A stretch of 64,000 nucleotides of DNA, taken from contig OZ076417.1 of NCBI GenBank assembly GCA_964187785.1, positions 34,968,001 through 35,032,000 on the forward strand, in the 5' to 3' direction. This stretch comes from Amphiscolops sp. MND2022 (taxonomy: Eukaryota). The notes below the pieces were generated by a model. It ran no database searches. It was not told the DNA's origin and worked only from the letters and a program-made list of their open reading frames with translations. Of this stretch, positions 924-56,745 are shown piece by piece (the stretch's first letter is position 1; each line of letters starts with the position of its first letter). The position numbers and the translations under genes are program-made.

Positions 924-1165
924 TCAGCGCATCCTAAAGCCGAAGAAGGGGTCGATTCTTACGCTTCCACTGGGCCCGTTCCTTAAGACACAGTGCTTCC
1001 TGCAAAGGGGGCACGCAACTTCCAGTCTCGCCTGGGCCACCCCTCTGCGCTCGTTATCACAATCCTTCACCTCAATCCAACGATCGCGGCATCCCTCACA
1101 GAGGAAGTGTTGGTCGTGGAGGACACTTGTTCCAGTTTCGTGGCAGACCATGCACTGAGGTATTT
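924..1165 (-). CDS. RING-like zinc finger coding segment
   Basis: Extending the ORF upstream gives PQCMVC-x8-HDQHFLCEGC-x22-CPLCR, i.e. eight ligands in RING spacing with His at ligand 3. A GTAAGA donor-like site follows NGPSGS. Gene boundaries unknown. Confidence 0.55.
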
Positions 1166-1599
1166 TTTGATATGAGATAATGGTGAAATGAAAACTATAG
1201 GATGAAATTTGAAGGTAGGAAAAAAAGCAGAAATGGATTTTGGTTTCGAAGTTATGTTAGGCAGTATTGCAAATGAATGACTGGTTAAACCAGTAACCGA
1301 AACTTCTGCAAACATTGAAAGATTTCAACTAAAGGGAAAGTCACCTTTGCTCACGATCCCTTCGCGTTTTTTCAAACTTAAATTGGCTTTGATGCATTAC
1401 TTGCTTTCTTTACTGAACACGCAGACACATTAACAACCTTTTTCGAGCTAACAATTAATTAGAACCCTAATTACTGACAAGTGAGATCAACAATTTCTCT
1501 TTGTTCAGCTATTGCTATCGAACCGTGAATCAGAACCTCGCTGCTTCTCAGCCACTTCTTTATATTTCATTTGGGTCAACTTCAAATTGTAAGTATGAC

Positions 1600-2760: not shown

Positions 2761-3152
2761 TATGCTAAACTACCATTTGTTTGATTTGTTACACTTTATC
2801 ATGTTTTGATCCTCCAGTATGTCAGATGACTCTCATCCTTTTGTGGTAAGCTATATATAGTCCGCTAATTTGAAGATAACGCGTGAACAGTTTCTAACTA
2901 CACTTGCCAAAAGAAAACGCTACTCTCTCCTGATTCTGTGGTCAACCATAGTCCGTGAAAAGTCACGTTTAGTTCGTAATTTGCAATTTTGTGCTACCTA
3001 GTTGAGTAATTGCTCGTTTATTTATCATTTCTCGTTGGAACTTAGTTTGATTTTAATTCATTGTCACTTTTGCTACTTCATTGCTCTTTGTGCAAGGCTT
3101 TCGAGACATACTTATCCGAACTCTCTGTACTCAAGGTAAGGTTGCAAAGCAA

Positions 3153-3835: not shown

Positions 3836-5430
3836 AAATGTTTCACCATAATAAAAAGAAGCTCTTGCATGAATAATTAACAGCCTTCTCTTTACGTGAC
3901 ATGGGAGCCATATTTTCGTGACTAATATAATTTGAAACCAAGCAAATAGAAACGGATATGATCATAGACGTAACACTAAGCTCATTCGTTAAAGTAAACT
4001 AGTCAAAAAACTGGAAAAACTGAAGTTTAAAGGAATCTGCCAGATATTGATGACAAACCAGATTTTTTTAAATGCCAGAAATTTCTTAAACGTCATTCAA
4101 AAATGAGCAATATTTGCATGACACTACAACGGTATTTTAAAACTTCATTATTGACGTACCCCCTTTGGTAGTTGTTTTCTTACAGTTTAAGATATGTATG
4201 CGGTTTCCAAGACACATGTATAAACATATGTTCTTACTTTCCATAGTTGTTTTCATGGCCATCGAACAGTGGATGCTATTTTGGTGGAAACCAAGACAAT
4301 ATGCTTAAAGTGGTGGAAACCAGGACAATACAGTCAGATTTAAATATTGACATACTGCCTCCTTTAGTAGTTGTTTTCTTACAGTTTAAGATATGTATGC
4401 GGTTTCCACGACACTTGTATAATGATATGGTCTTACTTTCCATAGTTGTTTTCATGGCCATCGAACAGTGAACGCTGTTTTGGTGGAAACCAGGACAATA
4501 CAGTCAGAATTAAACCTTATTTCCCCTGCGGTCGCTTGGGGAGGGGGCATTTTGCGCAATTATTGACAAAATACAATTACCTTTGAAAAAGACGGCATGG
4601 TAAAAGCCATTTTTAATCAAGTAATTAGAACCAAACACTTTAATAAAGGTTTATTCTGACATCAAAGCAGTATTTCAACCAATAAGGGTTAACCAAAAAG
4701 TTTGGCTTTCAATTACATTTCTTCCATTGTTGCCAAACAAACTCAAACGATCCAGTCTCTATTCTTTTTGTCATCATTCAGTCTCTCTCCTCCTTCTGTT
4801 CTCATTCTGCCATCAATCAGTCTCTCTTACCAGGTCATCTGTACTCGGTCTCTCCGCAAACCCTCTTCTGCACCCAGTCTCTCTCCACAAATCATACATC
4901 TGTACTCATTTTCGCTTCTTGCTTCAATGGATAAACTCATCTCACAAAACGGCGAAAACGCAGGTATTAAGTTACATGGAAAGTCGCATACCCCACGCAA
5001 AGTTGGGTTTTGCTACTACTGCCAAGTGTTCTACCCCAACGGGAAAACAAAGTACGAAGTTACACAAAAAAAAACATGTACGATGAAGAGATCATTTTCG
5101 ATGAGACCGGACAATAATCTTCATGTTAGGCCTTTTAGGGTTCAACTCTAAACACAACCAGTACCCCTCAAATCAAATCCAGTACAGCAGAAACCCAAAG
5201 AAGATATTATAAACCCTCTCGAGCCACTCTTTCACTACTGTTTCAACAGAAGAAACTTATTGATTTGTTGATTTGTTCTTTTGATATATGATTTTGTATT
5301 TAGATGATCAATAGGTTTTATTCATATACAGTCATGTTCGGTACAAAGCTCTAAATCATTTGAGTTACCGTAGAGAGAAACGCGCAGAGAGAGGAAAATG
5401 AATATTATATTCCACAAATTTTCGTATTTT
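3835..5430 (-). repeat. Left inverted-repeat arm (R1 modules + ~870-bp unique segment)
   Basis: ~4090-5430 is the reverse complement of ~27590-28720 (paralogous ORFs 4702..5151+ and 27854..28309-). 3835-4020 is the reverse complement of ~20050-20250. Confidence 0.85.
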
Positions 5431-5640
5431 TTGAAGTTTCGAAGTTTTTCCCAGTTTTGAACAAACTGCCAGATCATCACAATCTGCCTTTTTGATGACA
5501 TGCTGCACTTTTGGTCATGGGTATCTCTATTCGTACTTTGGGATTTTTCGCGTCAATAAAAACAATTTCAATTGATAAAAAATTGTTTTAGTTCAAGTTC
5601 TTTTGCCTTTCTGAAAATGATCATGCAAATTGAATATAAT
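5430..5640 (+). repeat. Single unit of the ~232-bp satellite
   Basis: ccagttttgaacaaactgccagatcatcacaatctgcc matches the tandem units at 56790-57460. Confidence 0.75.
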
Positions 5641-6890: not shown

Positions 6891-7790
6891 TTAAACTGTA
6901 AGAAAACAACTACCAAAGAGGGTAGTACGTCAAAATTGTAAAATCTAATATATCTTAATTTTGTCAAGGGAAATTTGTTCAACTTTCAATGACGTTTTAG
7001 AATATTCTGACATTCATATATATCTGGCTTAATATTGAAATCTGGCCGATTTTGATGAAAAGGTATATTTTCGAATGATTGGCAATTTTAGAGGCCGGCT
7101 TTTGTTTGCTCGAAAGGTATTATGGACATATTTTGTCTCTGACTTCTAAGAGCAACAAATTTTGGCTAAAATGCAATTAAAAAGTGAAACTAATTATGAC
7201 TAATTTTGGTCACAATCGTGAGTACTTTTTTACTCACGATTGGGACCAAAATATCACAGAATCTTTTTTCATTTTAGTATACTGAAAGGCCTCCTTTTTG
7301 TCCTCACGAAAGATTTTAGGAAAATATTTAACTCTGTATTCTATTAACAACGAAATTTGGCTAAAGAAGTTCTAGTCGCACGAAAACACTGAAAACATTA
7401 GCAACGAATATTTGTCTCTTTGACTTGTAATAAACACGAAATTCGTCTCAAAAGTCCTAGTCTCACGAAAACACTGATCAATCTTGCATGGCATTTTATG
7501 AAAACGTGGCATTTATTTAAAACTGTCTTGTCGTCAAAATATGGCAAATGTTTATCAACTGCCATTTTTCCATAAACATTCAACGGATGAGTTCGTTCTT
7601 GGATGGTCCTAAAACGACTGTGGAAAGTAAGACGATATCTTTATACATGTGTCGTGGAAACCACATACGTATCCTAAACTGTTAGAAAACAACTACAAAA
7701 GGTAGTACGTCGATATGTAAGTTTTAATATACCGTTTTAGTGTCATGGAAGTATTGCTCAATTTCGAATGACATTTTAGAATATTCTGAC
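6885..7790 (+). repeat. R1 array
   Basis: R1 core at ~6897 and ~7620, palindrome at ~7204. Abuts the ATG at 7791. Confidence 0.9.
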
Positions 7791-10700
7791 ATGTCTGATC
7801 GGGCTTGCTCATCGCAGTCACAAGAAGTGACCTGTGAGAAATGTGGGCAATTGTTGCCGAACAATAAAAGCAAGAACGAAGCACCGTCATACAAGAAGTA
7901 CAGAAAAAGCCCGACCAACCTAATTTCTTGTACCAATGGCACCTGTGATTATGTCACTGATCGGTTGTTCAGCCTCCAGCGTCATGAGAAGCAGTGTCCA
8001 GGGATGCCCTATGAGGACTGGAAGAAAAACGAAGTGACATGTGAGAATTGTGGACAGTTATTCACTAATAAGAAAAGTCGGATGCGTCATCAAAAGAACG
8101 CTAAATACTGTGTCAAGCAGAAAGCCAAGATTGATGCCGGCATAGAAGTGTCCATGTACAAATATCGTAAGTTATTTAACATTACTGAAGTCATTGAGTT
8201 TTTCGCTCGAATACTTATGATCTGGAAAATTAAAAAGGACCGTGTGTGGGCGGGGGTTTGGGAGGGGGATTAACAAAAAAGATCCATATCAAAATGCTTA
8301 CACATCTTTGTGTTTACACATGATGTTTTCCAGCAGCTGCAAAAGGTCGTCATAAAAGTCCTCATAATTGTCTGAGTTGTGGCAAGTTGTTCGCGTACCA
8401 GTACGTACTCCGGAATCACGTCGCAAGATCACTATCTTGCCAAGTAGCCCTAGCTCCAATTCCTGTTGATGTCACTTTCTCAGAGTATCCCCTATCTCCT
8501 TTTGGTACCACAGGGTACTTCGAATTTTGCGAGAGAATTCCTCTGGAATGTGGGTTTTCTTTCGACGAGTGGCAGGGTCCTCAGGAGAATCCAAGTGTGC
8601 ACTTAGGCTCTCTGTTGCAACACGGCATACCTCTGCTTTGGAAAGGTGGTGCAAATCACTGTCCCGGTATAAAGCTTCCCAAAGTTGACAGGAGTGCGCA
8701 TTTTCCCAGTGAAGTCCAGCAACTCCTGATGGCATCAAATTTGACTGATCCGGAGCAACAACTAGATGTGAAATCGGCAAAGATTGGCACTGTAAGCTTT
8801 TCATTATCTTTTCGCAAAAATACTGTTTCTTTTTAAAAGCCAAATTGTCTCGATTATTGGATTCATGTAGTGTTTTATCTATCATTATTTTCATCTTTCA
8901 CCATGATTATTATTTCACAAAAAATATTCATTACCTCTCTCCAATAAAACGATATGAATACTTCCTAGTTTCAGACGCAATCTCTATCCATACCGGAGTT
9001 CGTGGATGCTTTGAATTCATGTGGCCCCGATGACGTGAATTATCCATTGAATGTTATCGATATCAGGATTAAGCCAAAAGTGAGTTGGGAAACTTGATGA
9101 AAGAATAACCTCTTTTTTCAACTATTTTCATTTTTTTCAAATTAAGTTTTTGTGTTTAAGAAGCTGTACACAGTCCCAAAGATGGTAAGAGACAATTCCA
9201 TTGGGCACCTGGTTGAAAAACTCATTGGGAAGAATAGTCTCGAGCCTTATTCATGTGCCACTTCATATTATCTGCTGATTACGCAGGACTCAGCGCACAC
9301 AACTTGGCACCAAGACTTTTCAGCAACTTCTGTTTGCTATACTGTTCTTCGTGGCGAGAAAAGTTTTTTCTTGGTCAAGCCAACAAAAAAGAATATGGCA
9401 ATATTCGAGAAATGGTCAGATGCAGAAAATGACCAAACGTAAGATTTTTTTATTGAAACTAACGAAGAGTTTATAAAATTTACAAGAGTTTATTATAAAA
9501 TTAAAAATCAATTCTTTTGAACGAAACAATGGACACCTATAACTACAGAAACAGTGCATAAAAACTATTTTTGATTTATTTTGATGTTTTAGGCCCACAT
9601 TCTTCGGTGCGATCAATGAACTGGAAGAAGGATGCCTCCGACTCACTGTTACACCCAGTGACATTCTAGTTATGCCTGCCAACTACCTTCATTTTGTCCT
9701 CACGAAAGGTATTATGGTCTTCTTTAGTCTCTTTGAGTTATGAAAGATGTGTCAGTCGGTCTTTTTTGTAAATCGCTTTTACGTACACTTGACTAATTCT
9801 AAACGATTTTAGCTGACGATCACTTTCTAGTGTTTGATTCATTTTTTGTAACTTTGGCGTTTTTTCTGGTTATGGCACGATGCATAACTTTGCCACAACT
9901 TCATTCTTTCTTTTTCACTCGGCAGTGACAATACTCGTTTGCATGTTTTCCGCGTTCAATTTACACTTTCTCGCGATTTGATTGGTCCGTTTTTTCTCGC
10001 CAATACCGTCCGTTTAATCCGTTTGTTAACTTGTCTTCTACATTTACGGTGAACCAATCTTTGAATAATTCCTCAGATTGAATGATTGATCCTTTACATT
10101 AGGAAGGATGCCTTGACAAATAGTCAGCTATTCCCAGAGTTCTCCCCGGTGTTTGTACAATATGAAAATTGTACGGCAAAAGCCGATCTAATTTACATAA
10201 TTTACATGTCTACCACAACAGCTAATAATTATAATTAGTTTATGGAATAGTTCATTCCGAAATCTGTTAAAAATCGAGATGCGTACGAAATTGTTTTCCA
10301 GATATCATTTTCACACTGTTGGAGGACCGCGCCCAGTCCATTTTTGCTAGCGTTTGATAAACTGCCATTTTCTTAGATTGACATACAACGAATGAGCTCA
10401 TTCTTGAATGGTCCTAAAACAACTGTGGAAAGTAAGACCATATCATTATACATGTGTCGTGGAAACCGCTTACATATCTTTAACTGTAAGAAGACAACTA
10501 CTAAAGGGGGATGGATGGTTGTACGTCAAATTTTAAGTTTTAATGTACCGTTCTGGTGTCATGGAAATATTTTTCAATTTCGAATGGCATTTTGAAATAA
10601 TCTGGCATTTATTAATATCTGGTTAATCATTGAAATCTGGCAGAGTCCGTTAAAGTCTGACTTGCAATAACAAAAACATTGACTCAAAACTAATTTATAA

Positions 10701-11468
10701 GTGGAAATAATCATGAATAATTTTTGTCCCAATCGTGAGTAATATTTTTACTCACGATTGAAAACAAAAAATAATTTCATGTATTTCCTCAATCAAATCA
10801 ATACAGGTGACTCAATTGCAGTGGGGACCAATTTTTTGGCCCTTAGACACATCCCTATGATACGGGAAATGATGATCCTTGACCATTCGAGGACTTACGC
10901 GGATGTCAAGTTCCCTGATCTTCCCGAGCTGCTGGCATTGCTTCTTCTCACTGCAACAGAAAAAATTCAGAGAGCTTGTCCTTTCAAGTTTCGTTTATTC
11001 GACGCAGTGAAAACAATTGTTAATGAAAAGGCCGTCCAAGAGGTTTTTACAATTTGATAGGAAAAACTGTTCATTTTAAATTTCTAGTGTTTCACTCATT
11101 CAACCTATTTTCTTTTTAATTTGCAGATTCAACCACAGTTTTGCATGAACAAGTTGCGATTGCTTCTGGGCAGGAAACAACCGACCGGAACCCTCCAAGA
11201 TGCCGCAATCTCCAAAAAATATCTGGCAAGCGTCAGCATTAAATGCCCCGGTGACTCATACGCAACCATCCCCGATTACATTAACAATGTAGATGTTTTG
11301 AGTGAGTCGCGTGAGACCCGTGTTTCGACAGTTGAACTGCTGAGGGAGAATTCGCAAACTCCAAAATTTTGCGAAAACAAATTTCGACCTCATGCACTAC
11401 CGATAGTGGCTTCACTAAAAGGCATTAGAACTATCCCTAAAGAGGATGAACTCTTTGATATATGTTGA
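7791..11468 (+). CDS. C2H2 zinc-finger + JmjC histone demethylase-like protein (KDM2/KDM7-PHF8-like), 7 exons, ~636 aa
   Basis: Exons 7791-8166, 8334-8791, 8975-9079, 9161-9438, 9593-9708, 10807-11042, 11127-11468 have GT-AG ends, consistent phases and total 1911 nt without stops. Fingers: CTNGTC..RHEKQC, CENCGQLF..RHQ, CLSCGKLF..RNH. JmjC motifs: PLNVIDI, YYLLITQDSAHTTWHQDFSATSVCYTVLRGEKSFFLV, LVMPANYLHFVLT, GDSIAVGTNFL. The HxD..H Fe(II) triad and the 2-oxoglutarate Lys are present. True start uncertain because R1 abuts the ATG. Confidence 0.85.
9780..10330 (+). repeat. R2 dispersed repeat (intronic)
   Basis: gatttgattgg..gatgccttga..aatagtc..attcccag..gtttgtac is shared with 18560-19110. 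10190-10310 is the reverse complement of ~28835-28960. Confidence 0.7.
10360..10765 (+). repeat. R1 copy inside JmjC intron 5
   Basis: R1 core at ~10425 and a degenerate palindrome at ~10725-10760. Confidence 0.85.
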
Positions 11469-12366: not shown

Positions 12367-14895
12367 TCATTGTAAACTGGTTTGATATAAGGATCGATAA
12401 CTATTCGAACACTTGAAGTGACCACGACATGCTACGAAGCTACATCGAATCATGAAAAACCCGAATTCACGATGTTCAGTGAACCTCAAAATTTTGATGA
12501 AGGCATCTTCACCTTCTTTGTTACTTGCGATCACGTCCCATCGTTTCCCAAGCACACTGTCCCATGACTGATTAGACCCTTTGAGGTCATTGCTGATATC
12601 CCCAGAAAACTTCACTGTTTCTTTTGAGGACGTCGTTTCAAAACCACACATTTTACGGGTCAACGGCGTCGCTGGAATTAATGATTTTGTCATTGAATGT
12701 TTTTTCTGGGCAAATCCAACCATCCTTTTGACTGCTGAAAACACCGCGAAAGCTTGGTTAATAGGATGAACTAGAGTGTGGATATTGAATTCTTCTATTT
12801 CGTCATCGATAACTTGAACTTCTAGTGCGGGCATGCGTACTTCAAAATCGGGGTTTGTTTCTCCTATCATTTTAACAAACGCCTTTCGTTTGCTGCAATC
12901 AAAGAACAGTTCTTTTACCTCAAACGTCGCGTTTGCATAGTTGGTGAGAGACCCAACGTTCAGGATGTTGTTATAGCATGGCGCATACTTCAACTCAACG
13001 TTCTCGTCACTGTGTGGTATCAAAGATATTGCATCCACAAAAGGTATTGTTTTTGGGGGGGCATCGCTTTTTTGGTACGGGAGGCCTGGAATCGACTATG
13101 GTTGGAGGTGATTCAAGTTCTTCGTTGGTGTCATCTGGAGCAGCCTCATCAGGCAAGTTTGCCCGTAATTGTCGATAAGAGACAAAAAATTCTTTTCCTT
13201 CGTCATCAACGACCATGCACTGTCGCAGGAACGGATCGTTGATCATCACTGTCGCAGTAACAACTGATCCGCAGCAAGTAATCTCGCAATTTTCGAAGTC
13301 GTCGATACAGTCACAATCTTCGTCATTTGATTGCCAAAAGAAAACTTCGTCATTGCGCATTAACTTCCTTGGATTGAAAGGCAAGCTTCTACCCCTTTTC
13401 TTGCTCAGCGATTCATCCAGTTTTTGGGCTTTTCTAATATTCCAACGTCGCTGAAAAAAGTTGAAAGTTAGCTCTCGCTTTTCAAATTTTTATCAACTTC
13501 AATAATGGGTTTTTTGAAAAAAATATTGTGGAGAATATCAACACGTGGATTGTCATTGAAATCTGGCAGATTTTGCTGAACTGCCATTTTTTCCTAAACA
13601 TTCAACGAATGAGCTTGTTCTTAAATGGTCCTAAAACGATTGTGGAAAGTAAGACCATATCTTTATACATGTGTCGTGGAAACCGCATACATATCTTAAG
13701 CTACAAGAAAACCATTACCAAAGGGGATAGATAGTACGTCAATATTTAAATCTGACTGTATTGTCCTGGTTTCCACCACTTTAAGCATATTGTCCTGGTT
13801 TCCACCAAAATAGCATTCACTGTTCGATGGCCACGAAAGCTACTGTGGAAAGTAAGACCATATCATTATACATGTGTCGTGGAAACCGCATACATATCTT
13901 AAACTGAAAGGAAACAAATACCAAAGGGGGTAAGTACGTCAATATTTAAAATCTAATATACCGTATTAGTGTAATGGAGCAATGACTCAATTTTGAATGG
14001 CGTTTTTTGGAATATTCTGGCAATTATTCATATCTGGCCTAATATTGAAATCTGGCAGATTTGGATAAAATGATACATTTTTGATTGATTAGCAATTTTA
14101 GAGGCCGGCTTTTGTTCGCTCGGAAGATATTATGGACATATTTTCAAAATAGTATGGAGCTAAGACAAGTTGTCTCTCTGACTTCTAATAGCAGCAAAGT
14201 TTGGCTAAAAATGCAAATCAAAAGTGAAATTAATCACGACTTATTTTGGTCCCAATCGTGAGTAATTTTTTTACTCACGATTGGGACCAAAATATCACAA
14301 AATCTTTTTAATTGGAATCATGATTTAACTTTCATTTTTTGAATTTCCATGAATGGAAGTAGAACTTCTCAATTTTTGATGTTAAATGCTAGCCCTATAA
14401 ATAGTATGTCAAGGTTTAAATCTCACTTTTCTGTCTTGCCCTCAGAAATTTTGATTTTTTTGTTTGGCATTTTCTAATATTTTGGCATTTTCGAATATCT
14501 GGCTTGTCGTCTAAATTTTGCAAACTTCGTTAAACTTCCGGTTTCTAGTTAGTTCACTCCAACGAATGAGCGTAGCGAGTTATTCAATTTATAATTCGAT
14601 TTGTGTATTTTTTGTCCTCGAAACCTGTTTAGCATTTCATCGGAACTATGGCCTAAGAAATAAGAGAATTGTGGAAAAGATTTCGAAAAAAGTTTTGAAA
14701 TGTTATATCAACCTCATCTTCCCTGTCGATTTCTGGCACTGTTATGTCAACTGTTTTTCTCGTAGCCCACTCCATCCATTTGATTCTGACACTCCAGTCA
14801 CTCATGATTGCAGTGACTTTTGCAAGCTCCCAAATAAATGTTAGAGGGTCCAGGATATGGACCACTTCGTTCGTTTCGAACTTTTGAAGAAGCAT
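12367..14895 (-). CDS. Multi-Tudor/Royal-family-like protein, 2 exons, one frameshift
   Basis: Exon 1 14895-14713 (FETNEVVHILD..WELAKVTAI..SVRIKWMEW; resembles the PHF20-type Tudor pattern) ends GAG|GTTGAT and joins in phase 0 to ttttttcag|CGA at 13450. A second barrel-like unit follows (ATVMINDP..CMVVDDEGKEFFVSYRQLR). A 1-nt shift in a C7/A5 run at ~13050 links ORF 13007..13384 to ORF 12367..13038. Confidence 0.55.
13530..14330 (+). repeat. R1 array inside the Tudor-like gene intron
   Basis: Two R1 cores (~13640, ~13845) and a palindrome at ~14243. Confidence 0.9.
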
Positions 14896-15300: not shown

Positions 15301-15452
15301 TGACGCTCAATTTTGGTTGATAGCAATTGTTTGATAAAGATTTGCTCAGTTTCTTTCAAACCATTTTCACGATCAGTAGCTTCCAGTCTTCTCGAATATA
15401 CATCACACTTCCTTTCAAATTTTTGAATTGCTTGGTTGTAACTAAATAACTA

Positions 15453-18400
15453 ATGAATAATTCAAATTCCCAAAAGCAAACTCCTGCTCCTGATCCACCA
15501 TTGTCCTACTCATCTGTTCTAAGTAATTTCTCGACTCCATTGACAAACTTGACCACATGGTTGATCGAATCCTCAACTCCTTTGCTCAGCGGAAGTTCAG
15601 AAACTTCTTTGACAAATTCGAAACCCTCATTCGATGCAACAGTCTACTCGCAGAGCTCGCAGACAGTCTACACGCAGAGCTCGCAGAGCTCGATTACTTA
15701 CAATGTAGACGGGATTATGCAAGAAGAGCATCACGAGCCAAATCAGTCAGTCGAAGATCACGCGGTAACTCCTTCTCCTACTCTTGGCATTTCCAATTCC
15801 GTGGGTTTAACAAGCACCACAATTCCGACCTCAAGCCAGAAACAACTTGTTGACTCTTTTGAAGGAAGAGTCTACAATGCAGTCAGAACAACTCCCCCTG
15901 CAAAAAAATGCAAACCAGACTTGAAGACGGATGAAGCCAAAGAATGGCTAAAATCCTTCATAGTTGCCATTACGAGCCGTTACAAAAAGAATGTTAGCGC
16001 CCCAAAGAAGACCCAGATAAACTTTTCCAGAAGTCTGGTGGCCTACCTGTTTTTGTTTGTTGGCGTTGCTGGCATTTTGGACAAGGAAATCAGCAATATC
16101 ACTGTCCACGAGTTGGCTCAAGCCGTGGTACAAATGAAAGACTACCCTGATGATGAAGACATACCATTTTCCGTCGAGCCAAATGAAAGTAAGTAATTAT
16201 GCATAACCTAAACCCTTAACCTCTACAGTCTTTTTTGACCTTTTCGAACACTTGATGAAATTCAAAGTAGCTATCAATTTTGAATGATCCAAACAACAAT
16301 TAGATATATTGTCCTGGTTTCCACCATCTTGAGCTGAATTTGAACATTGTAAACGCCGCGACCAGGCCGCCCAAATTTTGTCCCCTGTGTCCCCAACCAT
16401 CATGACATGTAATAGCAACGAATATTTGTCTCTTTGACTTGTAATAAACACGAAATTCGTCTCAAAAGTCCTAGTCTCACGAAAACACTGATCAATCTTG
16501 CATGGCATTTTATGAAAACATGGCATTTATCCATAACTGTCTTGTCATTAGAATTTGGCAGATTTTGATGAACTGCCATTTTTCCGTAAATATTCAACGG
16601 ATGAGTTCGTTCTTAAATGGTCCCAAAACGACTGTGGAAAGTAAGACGATATCTTTATACATGTGTCGTGGAAACCGCATACATATCTTAAGCTGTAAGA
16701 AAACAACTACCAAAGGAGTAGTATGTCAATATTTAAATCTGACTGTATTGTCCTGGTTTCCACCACTCTAGGCATATTGTCCTGGTTTCCACCAAAATAG
16801 CCTTCATTGCTCAATGGCCACGAAAGCGACCGTGGAAAGTAAGACCATATCTTTATACATGTGTCGTGGAAACCGAATACATATCTTAAACTGTAAGAAA
16901 ACAACTACCAAAGGGGATAGTACGTCAATATTTAAAACCGTATTAACCGTCAAATGGTCATGGAAATATTGTTCAGTGTTGAATGGCGTTGTAGAATAAC
17001 ATGTCATTTAATATTATTTGGCTTGTCATCAAAATCTGGCAAATTTTGTTTAGGTGTGTTTAGATTTTCGATTGGTTAGAGTTCTTAGAGGCCAAAATGT
17101 TCTGGGCCTATTTTGTCTTTCTGACTAATAAAAATTTTTGAAAAAACTGAAAACTCGAAACTAACTTACAAGTTGAATAGATGTCTTTTTTTGCAGATTC
17201 TGTTTCTCGAGTACAATACAAGCCACCACGCTGGCTAATCGAAGGTTTGGTTGAGTATGCCAGCCACACGAGACCTGACTTTCTCAGCAAAACCGAAGGT
17301 GTGAAATTTCAACGATGTGTCAACGAAAGTGATGACCGACCAGTCGTGACAGAGCTCCTGTTCGTCAATTCTGTTGGGAAGTCTTGTTTTAGACCGAGCC
17401 ATGTTGTCGACCAGTATTTGATCCCTGTACGTTTGTTTTTTTTTGTCATTTAAATTTATATATAGTTCGGAGTTTTCAAAACAACTTCGATTGAAAAATC
17501 TACATCTACTAAACCATTGTAGTTCTAGTGCAAAAGATCAAAGATTTATTCGAAAGCATGTGTTTCAGGTACTTCAACAATGTAAAAAACCAGCCAATCA
17601 GCTGAAGTTCAAATTGGAACTCATCTATCCAATTGTTGACGACCCTGAAGCACGATTGCCAAAATTGAAAAATCAAATCAAGGAAGTGCAAGGAAAATTT
17701 GGCAATGAATTTGACCAGGATACCATCAAAACATGCGTGAGAAAGCATCAAGATGCTCAACGATACGCACGACAGTCAGCTCGAGCCACAACGTTCTTCA
17801 AATGCATGAACGGGAAATGTGACTTGAACATCTTGGAGAAAAGAATCGAAGGATTTTTCCAGAGGCAGAAATGGACAACACCAGAAGACGTCAAACAGGA
17901 TATTAGAAAAGTGTTTCTGTTGGTTCTACCTATGCTACAAAATCCAGATTCGAGAAGGATGGGCAGTGATGGTTCTGCTAAAATAATTTACAAAGGGATG
18001 GCACATAACATGGATTTCGAGTGCCAGACCGTCCTATTCGAACGATGTGACACGCAGAGCTGGCCAGGCGTATGTCCAGCCACTTTCAAATCTTATGGAC
18101 GCGGAGTGGTCAGCACACAGAAGTTTTTTAAAAACGAGATTGTTCTTGACTACCACGGTCAAATACTTGAGAAAATGACATTTACACAAGCTCTGGCGAT
18201 GGAAGGCGTACAGCCCGAGTATCTGATGGAGGTACGTAATCTAAAGTTTAAAGTTTTTTGTTAGATACATACCAAGTGAATAAAGACAAATAAAAATAGA
18301 TCTAAAAAGTCAAAGTATGAGTATTTGTTCTTTTATCAATTTTGGACCTAGAGAGCTAAAAGTGAAGAAGAAAAAAATTATTAGTTCACTAGGACCTAGC

Positions 18401-19403
18401 TAAAAGAAAGTACACGAAACTTTTTTGTGCTTAATACGATCTTTTTCTAAGTTGATAATTTTTTGTATATTTCCATTTTTTTTTCATTATTCGCTCTGAC
18501 GTAAACTCTACCGATTCTTCAAGAATTCAAATTTCTATCTTTTTTGTTACAATAATCCATTTTAGTCAAATTGGCGTTTGAATTCAATTTGGCGTTTTGA
18601 GATAAAATAGCACGTTAAGTAATTTCAGCAGAATTTTCACTATTTACACACTCGTTGAATACTGTCAATACGCGTCTAGTTGTATTTCGCTTACCGCTCT
18701 GGCTTTCTCGCAATTTGATTGGCTCGCTTCGTTTCAAACGTTTTGAAGTTCGTCAATAACGTTTTTCTAATCCGCCTGTGAATTCTTCTACTACGTTTAT
18801 AGTAAACCTATCTCTAAACATCTCTTCTAATTTTATAGATGTTCCATTACAATGGGATGGATGCCTTGATGAATAGTCCGCCATTCCCAGCGTTCGCCCC
18901 GGAGTTTGTACCACATTAAACTTATATGGTAATAGACGATCTATTCAACGTGTTAAACGGCTTGATGTCGTTTTATTTGCACTCAGAACGCTTTGTAAAG
19001 CCTTGTGATCAAATACGACTCCAAATTGTGTACCGCATACATAATTTTTGAAATGATCCCACGACAGCTAGTAACTCCAATTCATTTTTGGATTATTTCA
19101 TTCAAATTCTGTTAAAAATTGTGGGTTTTTGTAAGGTGTTCCTGTAACTTCTTTGTTCCAGGTGAAAGGTCCGGGCGGAGACTGATCAACGCTTCCTCCG
19201 AGATATGTGAAAGTCACCCAAAAAATCTATGTTTGGGACGCCTTATTAACCACTGTTCCAAAGATGCAAACATAAAGCAAACTGACATAGTGCTTTATGA
19301 CGAGTCCCGAGTTTGCTGCTTCAGGGCTATAAGAGATATAAGCCCTTTCGAAGAATTGAAATTCGATTACGAGGACCCAACAGCGCGGTCCCTTTTTTCG
19401 TGA
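15453..19403 (+). CDS. Ser/Thr-rich N-terminus + degenerate tyrosine-recombinase-like region + SET domain (SETD8/PR-Set7-like), 4 exons, one frameshift
   Basis: Exons 15453-16188, 17197-17426 (phase-1 join is exact), ~17473-18231 (acceptor uncertain) and 19162-19403. SET motifs GRGVVST, LDYHG, LGRLINHC and EELKFDY are all present, with no post-SET cysteines, as in SETD8. One base is missing near 19175 (ccgggcgg); one extra G restores EVKGPGRRLINAS. Confidence 0.8.
16300..17100 (+). repeat. R1 array inside SET gene intron 1
   Basis: R1 cores at ~16630 and ~16830. 16400-17100 is closely matched by ~59200-59830. Confidence 0.9.
18560..19110 (+). repeat. R2 dispersed repeat inside SET gene intron 3
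   Basis: Collinear similarity to 9780-10330. Confidence 0.7.
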
Positions 19404-20338: not shown

Positions 20339-23300
20339 ATAGTCACTGTGACCTTCATACATCTTCATCACTAGTTGAGTTGAATACAACGTTGTTGAAA
20401 TCTCATATCAACGCACTTTTGATGGACCCCTTAGCACTTTGGAATGCCCATTCTGTACAAGTCGACAAAAATTTGCTGTTTATCGACTGCAAAATGTTCG
20501 AAGTCATGGCCGAGAAACGATTCACCAACAAATACAGAAAATTCGAAAAGATCATTGACGATGCATTCGCCGGGTGTGGGTTGAATACCAAAGACTTACT
20601 CCGGAGAATTCCCATGAAAGGTCAAAGCAAACCGACTGTGTGTATAGCAGTGAGTAATTTTTTTTCTAATCATCATTTTTTGCAAATGTCTATCTTTGTC
20701 ATATTTGGCGCGATAATACTTTTTTCTAATTCGTGCTTCGCTGGCGTTTTGTATCCAATTCGTTAATTGAGTGTTTCGCTTCAAAGTCGGTTAAAAATCT
20801 GGATGCGTACGCAATTGGTTTTCAATTGTTTTCTTCATTGTGTTGTAATACCGCCCCTAATCCTTGTTTGCTTGCATCGCAAATGATTCGCAACATGCGG
20901 TTTCTTTTATATTGCTAAAAATACATTTACTAAATACATTACTAAAACATTTACATATCCACCACAAAAACCGTTTCCGAAAAAATATTCTTTACCGGGA
21001 AAAATTGCGATGTTTCTAATCTTCCGAGGGTTCAAGGATTTCCAATGGACCGACGCAAGGAAGAGATTTGTGGAATGCTTTGTCCCTCGATATTTGATTC
21101 CTTACGAAGATACTTTCAATTTTCCTCCTCTTGTAACACCAACCTTGAATCCCCTTGCAATACGTACCTCGAATCTGTCTGCGCCACCAACAATGGTCCT
21201 TGAAACAATGGATTCACATACACCACCAACAATGGTCCTTGAAACAATAAATTCGTTTGCAACACGAAGAATGGACCTTGGAACAATGGATTCGCATACA
21301 CCACCAACAATGATCCTTGAAACAATAAATTCAATTGCAACACCAACAATGGACCTTGGAATAATGGTTTCGCATGCACCACCAACAATGGACCTTGAAA
21401 CAATGGATTCCCATGCACCACCAACAATGGACCTTGAAACAATAGATTCGCATGCGCCACCAACAATGGACCTTGAAACAATGGATTCGCATGCACCACC
21501 AACAATGGACCTTGAAACAATGGATTCCCATGCACCACCAACAATGGACCTTCAAACAATGGATTCGCATGCACCACCAACAATGGACCTTGAAACAATG
21601 GATTCGCATGCACCACCAACAGTGGACCTTGAAACAATGGATTCGCATGCACCACCAACAATGTACCTTGATGCAGCGACAAGTCCAAATCCTAAAATGA
21701 GGAGAACAAAAAAATTGAACAAAGAAGCAGCCACTTGTTTCTGGAAAAGGGTCATCGATGAGGCCAACGATAATAAAGAAATTGGGTTCAATGAGTTTAT
21801 AGAACAAGTGAAAGACAATATGATTAAACGGAAATACCAGGGATTCACAAAGAAGGAAGAAGAGAATGTGGTGAAAATTCTAATCGAGCGTCTTTTTGAG
21901 AATCGAGGATCGACCAAGGAAATCAGTCACATTCTATCACTTACTGCTCAAACTGGAAATATAGAGGAAGTCATAAAACTTATCAGATCGAAACTTTCGG
22001 TAGTTGGCTTGGGATACAACGTAGTACCCTGTATACGCTTGATCAAGAAATCGACAGCTGAAATCCAGACCTATTTTGTTTCACTATGCCATCCCGAAAG
22101 AACGTTCTCCGGTTTCCGATGCGATCTGATAAAATTTGTTGAGCTGGCCGCATACCTGCTCGGAATGTATGATTTATGTGGTTTGAGAATTGATATCTGG
22201 GGCGACGGTTGTGAAATTGGAGGCCTGGAAACAACCCGTTTTGCCTTTCGAGTGTTTTCGGAAAAAATTAGTTGCCAGTCATCAAGTTCGGTGTTCTGTT
22301 TTGCATCGTATCGAGGAAAAGACAGCCGATTCGCGATGGAACAGAACCTTGGACCAACTATAGCTGGTGATCAAAGTTCGGGTTGGCTCTACCAGAAAAC
22401 GTCGGAGTTGTCAGATCGTGGAGTTAAACTAACCTACAGTGGAGATACACCAGTTTTGCTACGCCTGATACTGGGAATTTCCTGTGAAACGAATTTCAAA
22501 TCAAAAATGCCACTTCATATTCCTGATAATAGCTTTTTGCCAACAAATTGCCACCCTGAAACAGGTCTGAGAACCGATCTCAAGATACCTTTCCGAGAAG
22601 AACTGCCAAAAACATCCCTTGTTTATTTCCAAGACGTGCGATGTATATGCCCTGACCCGACGCACATGATCACCAGATGTGTTGAAAACGACTTGAGGAG
22701 AGTGGCGCAGAAAATAATCACTGACAAGTATCCCGATTATGGCCCCTCACTCAAAGCCTTTGAAGAAAATCTTACACGACGTGATGCAAAAAGGCCATAT
22801 TTCCAGTTCAATGTGAACACAAAACTAGGTTCTGGTGTTGGTACTGTAAACAGTGTGTCATTAGCCGGAAGTAATGCCCTATCTATTATAGCAGAAAAAG
22901 AGGAATTGGCTGGCGCAAATGATTGTTCAATAGGGAATCTTTTTGAAGATGTATGGGATCCCAAAAACGATGTTGTTATTGGGAGTGAATCTGCTGCTAG
23001 TGCACAAATACTAAAACAACTTCTCCCAGAACTTTTCGATAAGCCTCACCCTAGTGACAAGACATCCGCCAATCTCTACATGTCGAAGACAGATGCATGT
23101 GAATTGCTGCGCTCCAGCCTGAACCGCTGTGCAATTCTCTTGAGATCTGAGCAGTTTGACGCCCAATGCTACAAAAAATGGGCTGAAATATATTATCAGA
23201 CAACCATTTTGTTATTTGGTGAATGCTCATTGACACTATATAAGTTGAAGCTCGCAATGATGCCACAGATTGTAGAAGGAGGGTTTGTGGAAAGACCTTT

Positions 23301-24387
23301 TGACCACATGTGCGAAGGGCTTGAAAAATCCAATCATCACGCAAATCGCTATTTCCAGACAAAAACCATGCGTGGTGGCTTACCATAAAGATCCTCTTTT
23401 CCTGAAATTGTCATCTTCATTTGGAAAGTTCCTCCGTGCATCAATTGAATTGAAAACAAAGAAGTATGAATGTTTGGAAATATCTGAAATACTTGAGAAA
23501 CTTGTTGATGATTTGGATGCCAAATACCCCGGACCAACATACCTCGAAATTTGCAAGACCCCAATTTCCTCGACTTCTCTTGCAATCGGGAAGTCGCATC
23601 CCGATTCTCAATTTTTGAGTGGTATGAGGTTCTTTTCAATTGGAAGATTAGGTGTAGTCGATAGGTGTAGTAGATTTCGTTAACGAAGGATGTTCTGATT
23701 AAACTCATCAACGAAATGGGGGGCATATTCATTGAACACGATCAAGCAAGCAGACACCCTCATGAAGACACATTCACGACTGCCTAATTGCTTCGTTCTG
23801 GTCAAAGACGAAGAAGACCTAGTAATCGCCACAGGCGCTGTGCAAGAAATTGAAGACCTGAAAAAGAAAAGGCCGCTGGCGAAAAAAATAAAGCGAAGTA
23901 AGTCAAGTCTTTCCACGTCCCAGTCTTCAGATTCGGACAGTCAATACCCATCATCGCAATTCACAGCAAGACAGAAAAAGAAACCGCTCAATACTCACAA
24001 ATTGCTCAAAAATTTGCCCAAGGAGGTCTAACTTTTTTGAAGAAAAATTTTCTCATGGATGTCAAAAAAGTAGTTACGTTGTTAGACCCCAAAGATTACA
24101 CCATTGCCCCCGGAAGTAATTTTCGTCGAGCCAGAGTAAATGATATGAGACCACTCTTCCTTGATCAAATATCAGGCAAAAAATCAAATGAGAATATATC
24201 GGCTGTGGCTTATCTCAAACGATACAGAAATGGACAAATAGATTACCAAAACTCTTTTTCGAGAATGATGATGACACTTTTGCCGGAAAAATTGACAACA
24301 TTGATGATGATGACGACGACGTCGATGAAGAATGTTCTCAGATCACTTTGTAGACTCCAGAGTTCAACAAAAAATGGGACACCGTAA
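20339..24387 (+). CDS. RAG1/Transib-like DDE transposase-fold protein with 13-aa repeats and a frameshifted C-terminal BRCT-like domain
   Basis: Exon ~20339-20649 (donor GTGAGT), then the 792-aa ORF 21010..23388. Motifs align by eye to RAG1 core: IWGDG (ESCDG, D600), YSGDT (GYDEK, D708), PDPTH (IDALH), LYKLKLAMMP (NYFHKTLAHVP), CEGLEKSNH (SEGNESGNK, E962). Downstream frames give LSGMRFFSIG..LTKDVLIKLINEMGG..CFVLV..FLKKNFLMDV..LLDPKDY (BRCT-like), with about 4 frameshifts after 23385. Confidence 0.65.
21184..21672 (+). repeat. Coding minisatellite, 39-bp unit x ~12.5 (PPTMDLETMDSHA)
   Basis: Twelve full in-frame units plus one partial in ORF 21010..23388. Confidence 0.95.
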
Positions 24388-27490: not shown

Positions 27491-27589
27491 TGTTAGCCAA
27501 ATTTACTGGCTCTAGTTTTACTTTTTGTCCGCTTCCAAAGCTTCTCTGTTGGCTAACGCCCTCTTTTTGAAAAACACGAATATTTGTGT

Positions 27590-28720
27590 TATATAATATT
27601 TATTTTCCTCTCTCTGCGCGTTTCTCTCTCTACGGTAACTCAAACAATTTAGAGCTTTGTACAGAAAATGACTGTATATGAAAAAATTAATTGATCATTT
27701 AAATACAAAAATATATATATATATCAAAAGAACGAATCAACAAATCAATAAGTTTCATCTGTTGAAGCAGTGAAAGAGTGGCTCGAGAGGGCTTATAATA
27801 TCTTCTTTGGGTTTCTGCTGTACTGGATTTGATTTGAGGGGTACTGGTTGTGTTTAGAGCTGAGCCCTAAAAGGCTTAACATGAAGATTATTGTTCGGTC
27901 TCCAGATGTCATCGAAAATGATCTCTTCATCGTACGTGTTTTTTCGTGTAACTTCGTACTTTGTTTTCCCGTTGGGGTAGAACACTTGGCAGTAGTAGCA
28001 AAACCCAACTTTGCGTGGGGTATGCGACTTTCCATGTAACTTATTAACTGCGTTTTCGCCGTTTTGTGAGATGAGTTTATCCATTGAAGCAAGAAGCGAA
28101 AATGAGTACAGATGTATGAATTGTGGAGAGAGACTGGGTGCAGAAGAGGGTTTGCGGAGAGACCGAGTATAGATTACCTGGTAAGAGAGACTGATTGATG
28201 GCAGAATGAGAACAGAAGGAGGAGAGAGACTGAATGATGACAAAAAGAATAGAGACTGGATCGTTTGAGTTTGTTTGGCAACAATGAAAGAAATGTAATT
28301 GAAAGCCAAAGTTTTTGGTTAACCCTTATTGGTTGAAATACTGCTTTGATGTCAGAATAAAATTCGAATAAAGTGTTTGGTTCTAATTACTTGATTATAA
28401 ATGGCTTTTACCCTGCCGTCTTTTTCAAAGGTAATTGTATTTTGTCTGTAATTGCGCAAAATGCCCCCTCCCCAAGCGACCGCAGGGGAAATAAGGTTTA
28501 ATTCTGACTGTATTGTCCTGGTTTCCACCAAAATAGCATTCACTGTTCGATGGCCACGAAAGCGACTGTGGAAAGTAAGAACATATATTTATACATGTGT
28601 CTTGGAAACCGCATACATATCTTAAACTGTAAGAAAACAACTACCAAAGGAGGTAGTACGTCAATATGTAAATTTTGATATACCGTATTAGTGTCATGGA
28701 AAAATTGCTCAAGTTTGAAA
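27590..28720 (+). repeat. Right inverted-repeat arm
   Basis: Reverse complement of ~4090-5430, e.g. ttcctctctctgcgcgtttctctctctacggtaactcaa versus ttgagttaccgtagagagaaacgcgcagagagaggaa. Confidence 0.85.
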
Positions 28721-31230: not shown

Positions 31231-31430
31231 NNNNNNNNNNNNNNNNNNNNNNNNNNNNNNNNNNNNNNNNNNNNNNNNNNNNNNNNNNNNNNNNNNNNNN
31301 NNNNNNNNNNNNNNNNNNNNNNNNNNNNNNNNNNNNNNNNNNNNNNNNNNNNNNNNNNNNNNNNNNNNNNNNNNNNNNNNNNNNNNNNNNNNNNNNNNNN
31401 NNNNNNNNNNNNNNNNNNNNNNNNNNNNNN
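31231..31430. other. Assembly gap (200 N)
   Basis: Run of N. Confidence 1.
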
Positions 31431-36168: not shown

Positions 36169-39100
36169 ATGTCTGATGACAATGAGTCGCTGTCCTTTGG
36201 TCCTGGCATCGCTGAGTTAGTTACTGAGGTAGAAAATCAAATGGCTGTGGCCAATCCCCAATTGGGAGGGAGTAATGTTGGACTGGATCTTCCGGAGCTT
36301 ATGTTGGAAACCAGTCACTGTTGCCAATTTGCTGCTCGAGTTTCTTCTTCTAACGTCGCTGGTCTGGGAGATTTACTCGATCGCGTTCTGTCGCAAGAGT
36401 TTGGTAAGTGTATATTTGATTCATAATTACGTTGTAAGTGTCTAATCTTTGGCGCTGTATCGTTTGACTACGTTCTGTTAAGAGTAGTTTCATTATATAG
36501 GGGAGTATTTGCCATGACATTTTAAATAGGGTGGTCTTTTGTTTGTAGCGAATGTCAAAATGGCGGCTGTGGTAGACTACTTGCGTCGTTTCCATTCCTC
36601 GGTGGCGACTGGAAATTTCAGGAGTGCTGAAACTGAGGCTGTTCCAATACTTCGTCGTTTGGATGCTTTTCTGTCATCTCATCTAGGTAAGGTTTATTTG
36701 CTGCGGTTTCTACCAAGTTATTTCATCTAAGAGAGAGTCTGTTGACTGTTCCTCTTTGTTTTTTCATACTATTTCACATTCAGTTGTGTTGCTGTCGTAA
36801 GTCTGTAATGGGGGGGCATTACAGTGCACAGGCAAGCTATTTTGCTGCTTTTCGTGGAATCCGGGACACGAAAATTGAGAAAAGTTGTGGAATCCAGGAC
36901 AAAATTTCTCTTTGATGTTAGGCGTGTCTTGGATTCCACGACAATTTAATTCAAGAAGTGATGCTGCTTATCGCGTCAAGCATAAAGTGGTGGAATCCAG
37001 GAAATTTATGATTTCTGCAATCTCATTGGTTCATTTTGCAAAACTTACGTTTTTGTGGAATCCGGGACACCGCTACATGCCGACAGTGCGTACAGCTAAG
37101 CATTTGTTACTGGAATCCACGACAAAAATCGTGGAATCCGGGACAAATGACGTAATTTGCCAATTTTGCACGGTTAAAGGTATGGTCGTGGAATCCGAGA
37201 TATTGAAAGCACAATGTTGCGCTTTGAGCAAATAAGGCTTGCCTGTGCACTCTAATGGGGGGGGGCGATAGGTGCTACTAGGCGTCAAGTCCATGTGAAT
37301 GCCGTGATTGGAATGTTTTGTTGTAGATGCTGGAGTGCGGGCTGAAGTCGTAGTGGGGCAGTTCTCTGAGCTGTTCTCGCGGGTAGAGCGTGATCTTCAG
37401 CAGTGGATTAAGGCTGCCATCGAGTCAAGCTTGGGCAGTCTCGGGACGGTTGGTGCTCTCGCCGTTGAAGAGTTCCTGTCAAAGTTGAAAAGTGCAGTTC
37501 AGGACCTTGGGCAGTCCTCGAGCGTTCCCTGTGAGAGTGACGGTCTGCCTCGGCCACCTTCTCTAGCGGGCAGTGTTGCTGGAGGAAACAGTCGTGGTAC
37601 TGGAGCGAATTCTGATTTGCCTTCAGAGTCCCGGGAGAGAAGTGTCATCCCTTCAGGAGTGACATCGTCTGGGGTCGCTCCGACTTCTAAACCTGGTAAT
37701 GAATCTCAAAAGATCATCTTGGGGGTATTAGGGATAATTTAAGAAAATTCATATACGATACTAAGTACAAGCAAAGAGGTTTTTTTGTTTTTTTTGAAGG
37801 TTTGAGCTCTCAACTGGATTAAAGTGATTCACTTGTTGTTCTGTGTGTTAGCAGGGCGGAAACGTGCAATCAAAACATTGAAGCCGTCATTCTTTGTCTC
37901 TGGCGTCGTGGGGACCTTTGTCGGTTTCCCCAGGAACAAGCGTGTTGTTAACGGGTATGCCCGCTGCCGTCTATGTCCAGTGGATCTCAGTATTGCTGGC
38001 CGGGGATTGCACAATCTCTAGGATTACTGGAAGGGGCGGGAACATACCCTGTCATGTGTGCGGTGTGTTGTTTTTGAGTCTTGTCCTGTATGGCCTGTAT
38101 CCATTTGTGGTGGAAAAGTTGGATGCTATTCTATCATCTGGAGCGCGATTTGGTCTGCATGTGCGGGCAGATGGAGCCATGAGACGACTGGATTGCCACG
38201 TATTCGATGATGTGTCGGTCAAGACGGTATTGCTTGCTGTCATTCCTGGTGGGAACGCTCCCTACTAAAAGTCGTACTCTCCCTCTTGACGTGCTTGGAG
38301 TCGTATGCTGGTTTATCTGCTGTAAGTGTGAGTGATAACCTCCGTCTGGGAGCGTGCGCTGGCCACTGTTGCTCATCCTACTATGCATCTGGTGATGAGA
38401 CGTTTTGACATTGACTGGTTGAAGGGCTTGTTGCGGCGGCAGTTCATCCAAGAGTCTAGCGGGTTGGAGCCTTTCTGCATCCTAGAGTATTTCCGGTTCC
38501 GGCTTGCGGCTGTCATCGCAGATTCAGCCTTCGACATTTTGCTTAGATTATGTGAGGTTGGTCAAAGTAATTTTGTTTTCGTTTTTTTTTCTATTCGGGG
38601 GAGATCGGGGGTTGACGTTACTTTAGGGTGTCTTCGTTTGTTGGTTTTTTTTGGATTTGAGTGCGAGGTAGTGTGACATGTATCATTGTGTTGATAACTA
38701 GATTAGCTTGTTGGTTGTATAGTTTTAGATCGTGCGTGGGGTGCTGAGCAGTTTCAAGAGTTGTCACTACTTTGAACAGAGTTGGTGGAACGCTGGGACG
38801 ACCTGGGCGCCTATTTCGGAGTGCATAGGTCAAACGCCATCGCAGAGACACGCAATATTGCCTGTATGGAATTGGAGGTATTCAACGATGCTATGACGAG
38901 ACCGCGCTTCGCCGTACTGAAGTTTTCAGCAGAGACAGGTCAGTATGAACGTGTTGAACGATCTTTGTGTTCAGGCATGTCTGTGGTGTTTTTTGTGCAT
39001 TTGCTGATCAGGGTGGTAATGACGTTGTGAGTTCTAGGTTGTGGTAGGCAGAGTGTTTGCTGGTTGATGTAGCATGTTTTTTTTTGTGTTTCAGTTGTAT

Positions 39101-43254: not shown

Positions 43255-43527
43255 GGAAAAATTGGAAGGTTTAAGTTGAATTGAGTATGTTTAAGATTCT
43301 AGAATAATTCAATGATTCAAGATTAAAGTAGTGAAAGCGGCTTGTAATGTTGGTAGCTCACGATCTTGTGTCGTGTCTAGTTTTTTCTGATGGTGTCATT
43401 ATAAACGCGTGTTAGCACCTTTTTCACTAGCCAATAGTATTCTCTCTACTAATTCGTGTTAATTCACACTTTACCTGTTTTCTTCTATTTTTGCCGACTG
43501 GTTGTTACCGTCGTCGCAGGTACTAGT

Positions 43528-49138: not shown

Positions 49139-49350
49139 ATTGGAATCTTTTTTGACACAAAAGTTTTTTTTCGATCAACCGCAAAATTGATCCCGAAGAA
49201 CTTCGACGAAGAGAAAAATTAAAATTTAAATATCAGTTCAATCAAGATTTCGTTTTTCCGCAATTAAATGTTCGATGTTTGAACTAAATATTGGCTTTAG
49301 CTTCAATCTTCGTGTACCAATAGTTTTTAAAGATTTCCTAATAAAAAATT

Positions 49351-56432: not shown

Positions 56433-56745
56433 CATTAGAGTGCACAGGCAAGCCTTATTTGCTCAAAGCGCAACATAGTGCGTTCAATACCTCGGATTCC
56501 ACGACCATACCTTTAACCGTGCAAAATTGGCAAATTACGTCATTTGTCCCGGATTCCACGGATTTAGTCGTGGATTCCAGTAACAAATGCTTAGCTGTAC
56601 GAACTGTCGGCATGCAGCGGTGTCCCGGATTCCACAAAAACGTAAGTTTTGCGAAATGAACCAATCAGATTGCAGAAATCATAAATTTCCTGGATTCCAC
56701 GACTTTATGCTTGACGCGATACGCGGCATCTCTCCTTTAATTAAA
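56433..56745 (-). mobile_element. Partial second copy of the gtggaatcc MITE
   Basis: Reverse complement of ~36940-37257, including the TIR cattagagtgcacaggcaag. Confidence 0.85.

Follow-up and report, generated by a model that had tools for sequence, protein, structure and literature searches.

How do animal transposons counter histone-based silencing? This largely open question is raised by a locus in Amphiscolops sp. MND2022, where a stretch of 64,000 nucleotides (assembly GCA_964187785.1, contig OZ076417.1, positions 34,968,001 to 35,032,000 of the forward strand; hereafter the window) contains a gene for a JmjC protein with N-terminal zinc fingers on the plus strand at positions 7791-11468. 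We asked where this gene belongs and what it may do there. It is, with near certainty, cargo of a giant transposon, and the reading that we prefer, with a probability of roughly 55%, is that it encodes a demethylase by which the element would counteract silencing of its own copies.

Structure of the JmjC gene and its predicted protein

The gene consists of seven exons (Table 1), and the initial annotation, which had described them as phase-consistent and free of stops, was confirmed: together they give 1911 nt and a protein of 636 amino acids, with a single terminal stop codon and GT-AG boundaries at all six introns. Introns 1, 2, 4 and 6 are common to three diverged families of the element, F1 (which includes the window copy), F2 and F3, and introns 3 and 5 are specific to F1. 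Because F2 and F3 lack both of the latter and align without gaps across their positions, these two junctions are confirmed as well. An extra 5' exon, E0, probably lies upstream of exon 1; it matches an exon located about 110 nt 5' of the ATG in locus L129, and its frame differs between copies. Immediately 5' of the ATG, an AG acceptor was found in 21 of 26 F1 copies and AC in the other five, including the window copy, in which the E0 donor is retained at 3136 and a substitute AG is present at 7778-7779.

The best PDB matches to exon 4 were PHF8 (5e-12), KDM7A (2e-11), PHF2 (2e-9) and KDM2A (9e-7), and the second half of the JmjC domain, taken from a related copy, matched the same group weakly. 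The H-x-D..H triad, which had been described as intact, is present as H363-x-D365...H439, and its residues are kept in 25, 26 and 26 of the 26 copies, respectively. In PHF8, iron and cofactor are bound by H247, D249, H319, T244, Y257, K264, N189 and N333 (PMC9516565, in the text available). The counterparts in the element protein are H363, D365, H439, T360, Y373, K380, N304 and N453, each present in 25-26 of the 26 copies. The protein is probably an active demethylase.

The architecture had been called unusual, with three or four C2H2-like fingers at the N-terminus, and this holds in part. No PHD, CXXC or F-box match was obtained with Pfam in any of the seven exons, but the combination of zinc fingers with a JmjC domain has a precedent in plant REF6. 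Three fingers are indeed N-terminal (amino acids 47-69, 84-107 and 138-161), but all are of the C2HC type and the supposed fourth is a CxxC remnant that lacks the histidines. Exon 1 scored 22.9 bits against the Pfam zf-C2H2 model, under the cut-off of 25.2. The helix of finger 1 reads RLFSLQR in the window copy and RLFNLQR in most copies; its positions -1 and 6 are Arg in F1, F2, F3 and the distant L112 family. The finger region could not be followed into other organisms, since the exon 1 search gave just four matches, three of them full-length and 88-91% identical and one short. Longer homologs of exon 4 were not found among 13 candidates.

Copy number and separation from the host KDM2/7 gene

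A search of the 1.07-Gb genome with exon 4 returned 1148 candidates and, from these, 150 scored matches, with at least 78 close copies (89-100% identity) and at least 72 distant ones (67-74%). The 78 close copies are spread over the large contigs and also occur on small contigs. A canonical KDM7 query recovered a separate, multi-exon host gene at C4:53.02-53.03 Mb with the motif HIDFGGTSVW, and the residues that flank the H-x-D motif differ between the element-type JmjC proteins and canonical KDM2/7. In a JmjC tree of 59 rows, which is unrooted and has long branches (P0126 was dropped for lack of the motif), a branch with 100/100 support separates eight element-type rows and database proteins from the host gene and 18 PHD-bearing proteins; one of these eight, L112, is multi-copy and was labeled as element-type independently of any linkage to a transposase. 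The separate host gene and this branch show that the gene under study is not the canonical KDM2/7 gene of the host. The unrooted tree is compatible with either a KDM2 or a KDM7 origin of the element JmjC, which may derive from inside KDM7.

The database proteins P0123-P0205, which stem from several different sources, cluster with the JmjC of the element type and not with canonical KDM2/7, and the transposase described below has 65 database homologs with identities down to 32%, hinting at a wider lineage. A multi-copy and largely intronless relative (L112-L118, e.g., G000:C12:43.89 Mb) combines a single C2HC finger (helix R,D,R) with a Gln/Gly-rich repeat linker and a JmjC core, and adjoins a short tandem repeat.

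A 50-kb transposon related to RAG1 and Transib

Four other copies of the element could be delimited. They are 97-99% alike, measure 47.3, 50.4, 50.1 and 48.9 kb, and have the same 21-bp terminal inverted repeat (TIR) and a variable 2-bp target site duplication (TSD). Twelve of 13 further end pairs were readable and 11 of these 12 have a 2-bp TSD, giving 15 of 16 overall; the unreadable pair (L159/L160) is outside this count. The 21-bp TIR has 859 exact matches in the genome, as compared to none for the reversed control, and the termini, CATTA..TAATG, fit the pattern of CA..TG ends with a TSD of 2-5 bp. The core of the element holds the JmjC gene, a transposase, a SET-domain gene, a RING-like gene and two genes of unknown family, and the remainder is made up of R1 repeats together with Ty3/Gypsy fragments that have decayed. 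F2 and F3 also have the JmjC, transposase, SET and unknown genes, at 34-65% identity, and three out of three more distant JmjC loci adjoin a transposase.

In the intact copy at C3:52.50-52.55 Mb, the transposase has an open frame of 1201 amino acids. A structural model built from a 48-row alignment (predicted local distance difference test, pLDDT, 83, as compared to 31 for a single-sequence model) had its best match in RAG1 (Z 17, root mean square deviation 4.0, 398 aligned), also matched Transib, and has a BRCT domain at the C-terminus. The catalytic residues D92, D172 and E465 are conserved in 17/17, 33/34 and 44/45 filled rows of the alignment. Transib proper has a 5-bp TSD and CAC termini, from which the element differs by its 2-bp TSD and CATTA..TAATG ends. 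Transposases of the CMCT clade have C(2)C and H(3-4)H motifs, according to the text available of PMC12730594. Here, CxxC was absent from the 45 residues past the second Asp, the range searched, in 30 of 30 rows listed; H(3-4)H was not found at the expected His site, which reads PYKLK; and there was no Plavaka transposase Pfam match among the 48 alignment members. Because the two CMCT motifs were not found where expected, the superfamily was left unassigned. The element adds a 50-kb lineage with a 2-bp TSD to the relatives of RAG1 and Transib.

Another role for the JmjC protein may be considered, since a writer and an eraser occur together in F1, F2 and F3. With element-binding fingers, the protein might act jointly with the SET enzyme to establish chromatin that confines the element to certain cells or lowers its activity, and would then be a self-limiting or host-sparing regulator. 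The best PDB matches of the SET protein are weak but include SETD8/KMT5A, whose mark can be removed by PHF8. However, the SET assignment is itself weak (E 0.02), and the known transposon-borne erasers have been read as anti-silencing factors in the text available of PMC12730594 and PMC5735166; we consider this role improbable.

As separate observations on element structure, a 1.1-kb module is present in both orientations at 4338-5431 and 27570-28673 of the window and in 4-5 copies per intact element, with an open reading frame (ORF) of about 76 amino acids that has a CxxC motif and no Pfam match. At L126-L128, distant JmjC families (WHVDY/WHVDF) adjoin homologous transposases and have tandem mini-exon-like repeats upstream. 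At L096 (G000:C8:6.65 Mb), the JmjC gene is partly duplicated in tandem with the junction inside R1 repeats, which suggests that R1 drives rearrangements of the element.

Selection on the JmjC gene

The initial annotation had proposed dN/dS (the ratio of non-synonymous to synonymous substitution rates) across copies as a check on the gene. We used 26 F1 copies, hand-picked across the range of identities and hence not random, and left out 34 two-copy variants. Variants common to at least three copies comprised 50 non-synonymous and 79 synonymous changes (dN/dS 0.18), as compared to 228 and 74 among private variants (dN/dS 0.87; p 0.30 against neutrality), and the two classes differ strongly (Fisher p 7e-13). 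Shared changes have been strongly purified and private ones are near neutral; therefore, the elements that spread needed the JmjC protein, and the check indicates that purifying selection acted on the lineages that transposed. In comparisons between families, synonymous sites have reached saturation and the dN of the JmjC gene is 0.16-0.24, and despite this saturation the frame and the introns have been maintained. Open frames were found in 12 of the 26 F1 copies and in 9 of 20 copies from F2 and F3.

These results bear on whether the gene is a passively captured fragment of a host gene, or the canonical host KDM2/7 gene itself. The element does hold many captured and decayed fragments, such as Ty3/Gypsy pieces and a hAT-like piece. 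Yet a dN/dS of 0.18 on shared changes, a frame and introns kept across families with saturated synonymous sites, and a separate host gene on the other side of a 100/100 branch refute this explanation, which we regard as very improbable.

The window copy itself has eight non-synonymous and two synonymous private changes, and rare residues that include N61S in the predicted recognition helix, I381S, G458R and D478V. It appears to be an inserted copy that, given these changes, is now drifting neutrally and decaying. Its intactness is of no special significance: the private changes, N61S among them, look neutral and 12 of the 26 sampled copies are open, so an open frame in this copy is unremarkable.

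Dispersed motifs and the finger code

The initial annotation had inferred a sequence-specific, DNA-targeted demethylase that could recognize repeats of the element, and our results support this in part. The proposed mechanism is as follows. In a KDM7/PHF8-type protein whose zinc fingers sit where KDM7 has its PHD finger, the fingers are predicted to bind motifs that are dispersed in the element, and the JmjC domain would likely strip repressive methylation from histones and thereby keep the element active. We infer the enzymatic activity, the substrate, the DNA binding and the benefit to the element; the substrate would be H3K9me1/2, H3K27me2 or H4K20me1, by analogy with KDM7, which acts on these marks.

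The strongest motifs shared between families, CGTGGAAACC and AAGACCATATC, occur 5-15 times per family core as compared to 0-1 times in 137 kb of flanking sequence, and the CGTGGAA core is also found near the element ends. Another motif, GGTYCCAATC-NN-GRG, is present in unrelated contexts in F2 and F3 and in a hairpin in F1 (the R1 hairpin motif); of the 61 C1 sites listed for this hairpin motif, 56 fall within elements marked by TIRs or just inward of them, as counted by hand. Finger 1 has R,N,R at positions -1, 3 and 6 of its helix in F1 (position 3 in 24 of 26 copies) and R,H,R in F2 and F3, for which the zinc-finger code gives GAG and GGG, respectively. The triplet that follows GTYCCAATC-NN is GAG at 21 of 23 sites in F1 and GGG at 58 of 65 sites in F2, and the N or H residue of finger 1 is predicted to switch recognition from GAG to GGG. 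In a BLAST-based control for turnover from GAG to GGG, 4 of 15 sites were aligned and one was GGG, a small number. We treat the match between finger 1 and GAG/GGG as a lead and not as a result.

Several points weigh against a DNA-aimed, anti-silencing function. Related copies supply the GAG/GGG sites, which represent a single contrast spotted post hoc. F3, which also has R,H,R, fits only in part, with 13 GGG, 9 GAG and 6 TAG among 28 triplets, and the adjoining bases do not agree with what the code predicts for fingers 2 and 3. In the L112 family (R,D,R), which is out of sample, there was no GCG in the nearby repeat and no CCAATC motif. No finger was found within the 10-kb loci L126-L128, where the JmjC relatives may work without one, and the shared motif with the strongest enrichment, which recurs near the element ends, could be a site for the transposase. 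The linkers between the fingers are 14 and 30 residues long and the fingers are C2HC, as compared to the short linkers and Cys2-His2 ligands of a classical C2H2 array. Finally, H3K9me3 is the usual mark on animal transposons, and to our knowledge KDM7-type enzymes do not remove trimethyl marks.

An alternative is an active element-borne enzyme that is not guided by DNA sequence. Its C2HC fingers would bind a protein, such as the SET protein, the transposase or a host factor, and the enzyme would adjust chromatin where the element leaves or inserts, or hydroxylate a substrate other than histones. Each of the three fingers has Cys as its last ligand, comparable to the CCHC fingers that bind proteins, the gene is carried along with SET and RING genes and a transposase that has a BRCT domain, finger-less relatives possibly exist, and the flanks of the H-x-D motif are unlike those of canonical KDM2/7. 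On the other hand, finger 1 has Arg at positions -1 and 6 in three families and in L112, which is typical of DNA-binding fingers, and it matches GAG/GGG. We consider this alternative rather unlikely, and prefer the self-targeted anti-silencing demethylase. Tentatively, the preferred reading may be extended to an old lineage of giant animal transposons with an unclassified RAG1-fold transposase and a sequence-addressed histone demethylase, in which the fingers would co-evolve with a scattered, family-specific address motif.

The window copy and its surroundings

The features of the window are listed in Table 1. One end of the first element copy is located 3322 bases before the start of the window, and the copy breaks off at an N gap at 31231-31430. 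Compared with the four delimited copies, an internal block is inverted relative to the ends. Instead of a 60-kb tandem unit, which we rejected, we favor two insertions, or pieces of the assembly with N gaps at their boundaries. The JmjC gene had been described as the only gene of the cluster without a frameshift; this is correct as compared to the SET, transposase and minus-strand 12370-13489 genes, which are all frameshifted, but not as compared to two others, the exon at about 20340-20660, which has no exon indel, and the RING-like ORF, which is open although its ATG is lost.

Table 1. Coordinates of the JmjC gene, other element genes and repeats in the window.
Feature	Position	Strand	Comment
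RING-like cargo gene	927..1256	-	Pfam RING E 9e-4 (intact copy); ATG of intact copies altered in window
Upstream exon E0, probably non-coding	2926..3135 (start approximate)	+	Donor GT at 3136; predicted splicing
R1 repeat end in place of native acceptor 5' of ATG	7764..7790	+	Window copy and four others
JmjC exon 1	7791..8166	+	CxxC remnant 7833-7844; C2HC finger 1 7929-7997; C2HC finger 2 8040-8111
JmjC exon 2	8334..8791	+	C2HC finger 3 8369-8440, then N-terminal portion of KDM7-like core
JmjC exon 3	8975..9079	+	N304 (equivalent of PHF8 N189, placed by eye)
JmjC exon 4	9161..9438	+	T360, H363 (9308-9310), D365 (9314-9316), Y373, K380
JmjC exon 5	9593..9708	+	H439, distal iron ligand (9690-9692)
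R1 repeat in intron 5	10354..10772		CCAATC-GT-GAG motif at 10729
JmjC exon 6	10807..11042	+	N453 (equivalent of PHF8 N333), helical tail
JmjC exon 7	11127..11468	+	Ends at stop codon; last exon homologous in all three families
Conserved cargo gene, unknown family	12370..13489	-	373 amino acids in intact copies; window frameshift near 13055
Spliced SET-domain cargo gene	15450..19400	+	Pfam SET 2.6e-7; window frameshift near 19172
Small conserved cargo exon	20340..20660 (limits approximate)	+	Exon indel not seen
Transposase (RAG1/Transib fold and BRCT)	20887..24387	+	Frameshifted in window from 23379
Non-autonomous derivative, 441 bp, same terminal repeats	36817..37257		Flanked by G runs
TIR of second element copy, 98% identical	56433..56453	+	Copy runs beyond window end

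A fragment with what we take to be a hAT-like transposase motif is present at 1-642 and 60685-61314, both on the minus strand, and is confined to the element subfamily of the window. The ORF at 1-642 was rejected as the transposase of the element, being missing from all four delimited copies. A decayed pair of gag-like ORFs at 41854-43290 (minus strand) lies between 611-bp direct repeats (34707-35317 and 43527-44134) that are 97.5% identical, and is probably a long terminal repeat retrotransposon. Tandem copies of PAN/C-type lectin genes at 47876-56074, spaced at about 2 kb and 95-98% alike, are probably host genes.

Comparison with known systems

The closest relatives of the encoded enzyme are the KDM7 family (PHF8/KDM7B, KDM7A and PHF2) and KDM2A, with which it has in common the JmjC core and every residue for Fe(II) and 2-oxoglutarate. 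It differs from them by C2HC fingers in a protein without PHD, CXXC or F-box matches, by its place in a separate long-branch group and by being multi-copy cargo. JmjC proteins that are aimed by fingers include yeast Rph1/Gis1, which together with REF6 belong to another JmjC subfamily and have C-terminal C2H2 fingers. The JmjC demethylase REF6/JMJ12 of Arabidopsis is guided to a DNA motif by zinc fingers within the same protein, as given in the text available of PMC7105484 and PMC6497721. The element protein would work in a comparable way. REF6 and Rph1/Gis1 are non-mobile host genes, whereas the gene described here is transposon cargo.

Among mobile elements, the fungal EnSpm, ESTA and Plavaka transposons of the CMCT clade carry TET/JBP genes, which have been proposed to erase silencing marks (PMC12730594). 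To judge from the available text of that study, they resemble the element described here as RAG1/Transib-related cut-and-paste elements with a 2-oxoglutarate and Fe(II)-dependent dioxygenase, CA..TG ends and a 2-5 bp TSD, and the CATCA ends of PlavakaB resemble its CATTA. The differences are an animal host, a histone-type JmjC in place of a 5-methylcytosine oxidase, the fused fingers, and a transposase that has a BRCT domain and lacks C(2)C and H(3-4)H where expected. SET genes in oomycete transposons are cited in the text available of the same study, and a survey of fusions between chromatin proteins and transposons reports PHD, Chromo and SET fusions in its available text (10.1101/2021.11.30.470311). 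The term JmjC does not occur in the main text of either PMC12730594 or 10.1101/2021.11.30.470311, whose supplements could list such elements. A transposon-borne JmjC was not found in the literature covered, with most subscription journals and Repbase outside that coverage, and the nearest case was that of Amoebidium. There, endogenous giant viruses have KDM4-like JmjC genes that contain introns, are divergent and lack the reader domains of the host (PMC11244446, text available). In both cases, a genomic parasite carries paralogs of histone demethylases, but in Amoebidium the carrier is a giant virus and the protein is a KDM4 type with JmjC only and no fingers.

A functional parallel is VANC of the Arabidopsis VANDAL elements, which in the available text of PMC5735166 is proposed to act on repeated motifs that are specific to a family and differ among related elements. 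Both systems have an element-encoded factor and candidate family-specific repeated motifs, predicted from sequence in the present case. VANC is a factor of MuDR-type elements and causes DNA methylation to be lost, whereas the protein described here joins a catalytic JmjC domain to fingers with predicted binding.

The transposon-borne zinc-finger JmjC gene is real, is under selection, and is a variant of the element-encoded chromatin erasers, of which TET/JBP in fungi and KDM4-like proteins in endogenous giant viruses were known, with VANC as the sequence-specific anti-silencing factor in plants. Since the JmjC gene is under selection, intact copies are nearly identical, and three diverged families with candidate address motifs are available, the question of how an animal transposon counters histone-based silencing becomes directly testable. 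If the preferred reading is true, the element would provide an animal and enzymatic counterpart of anti-silencing by VANC, with a readable code from finger to DNA.

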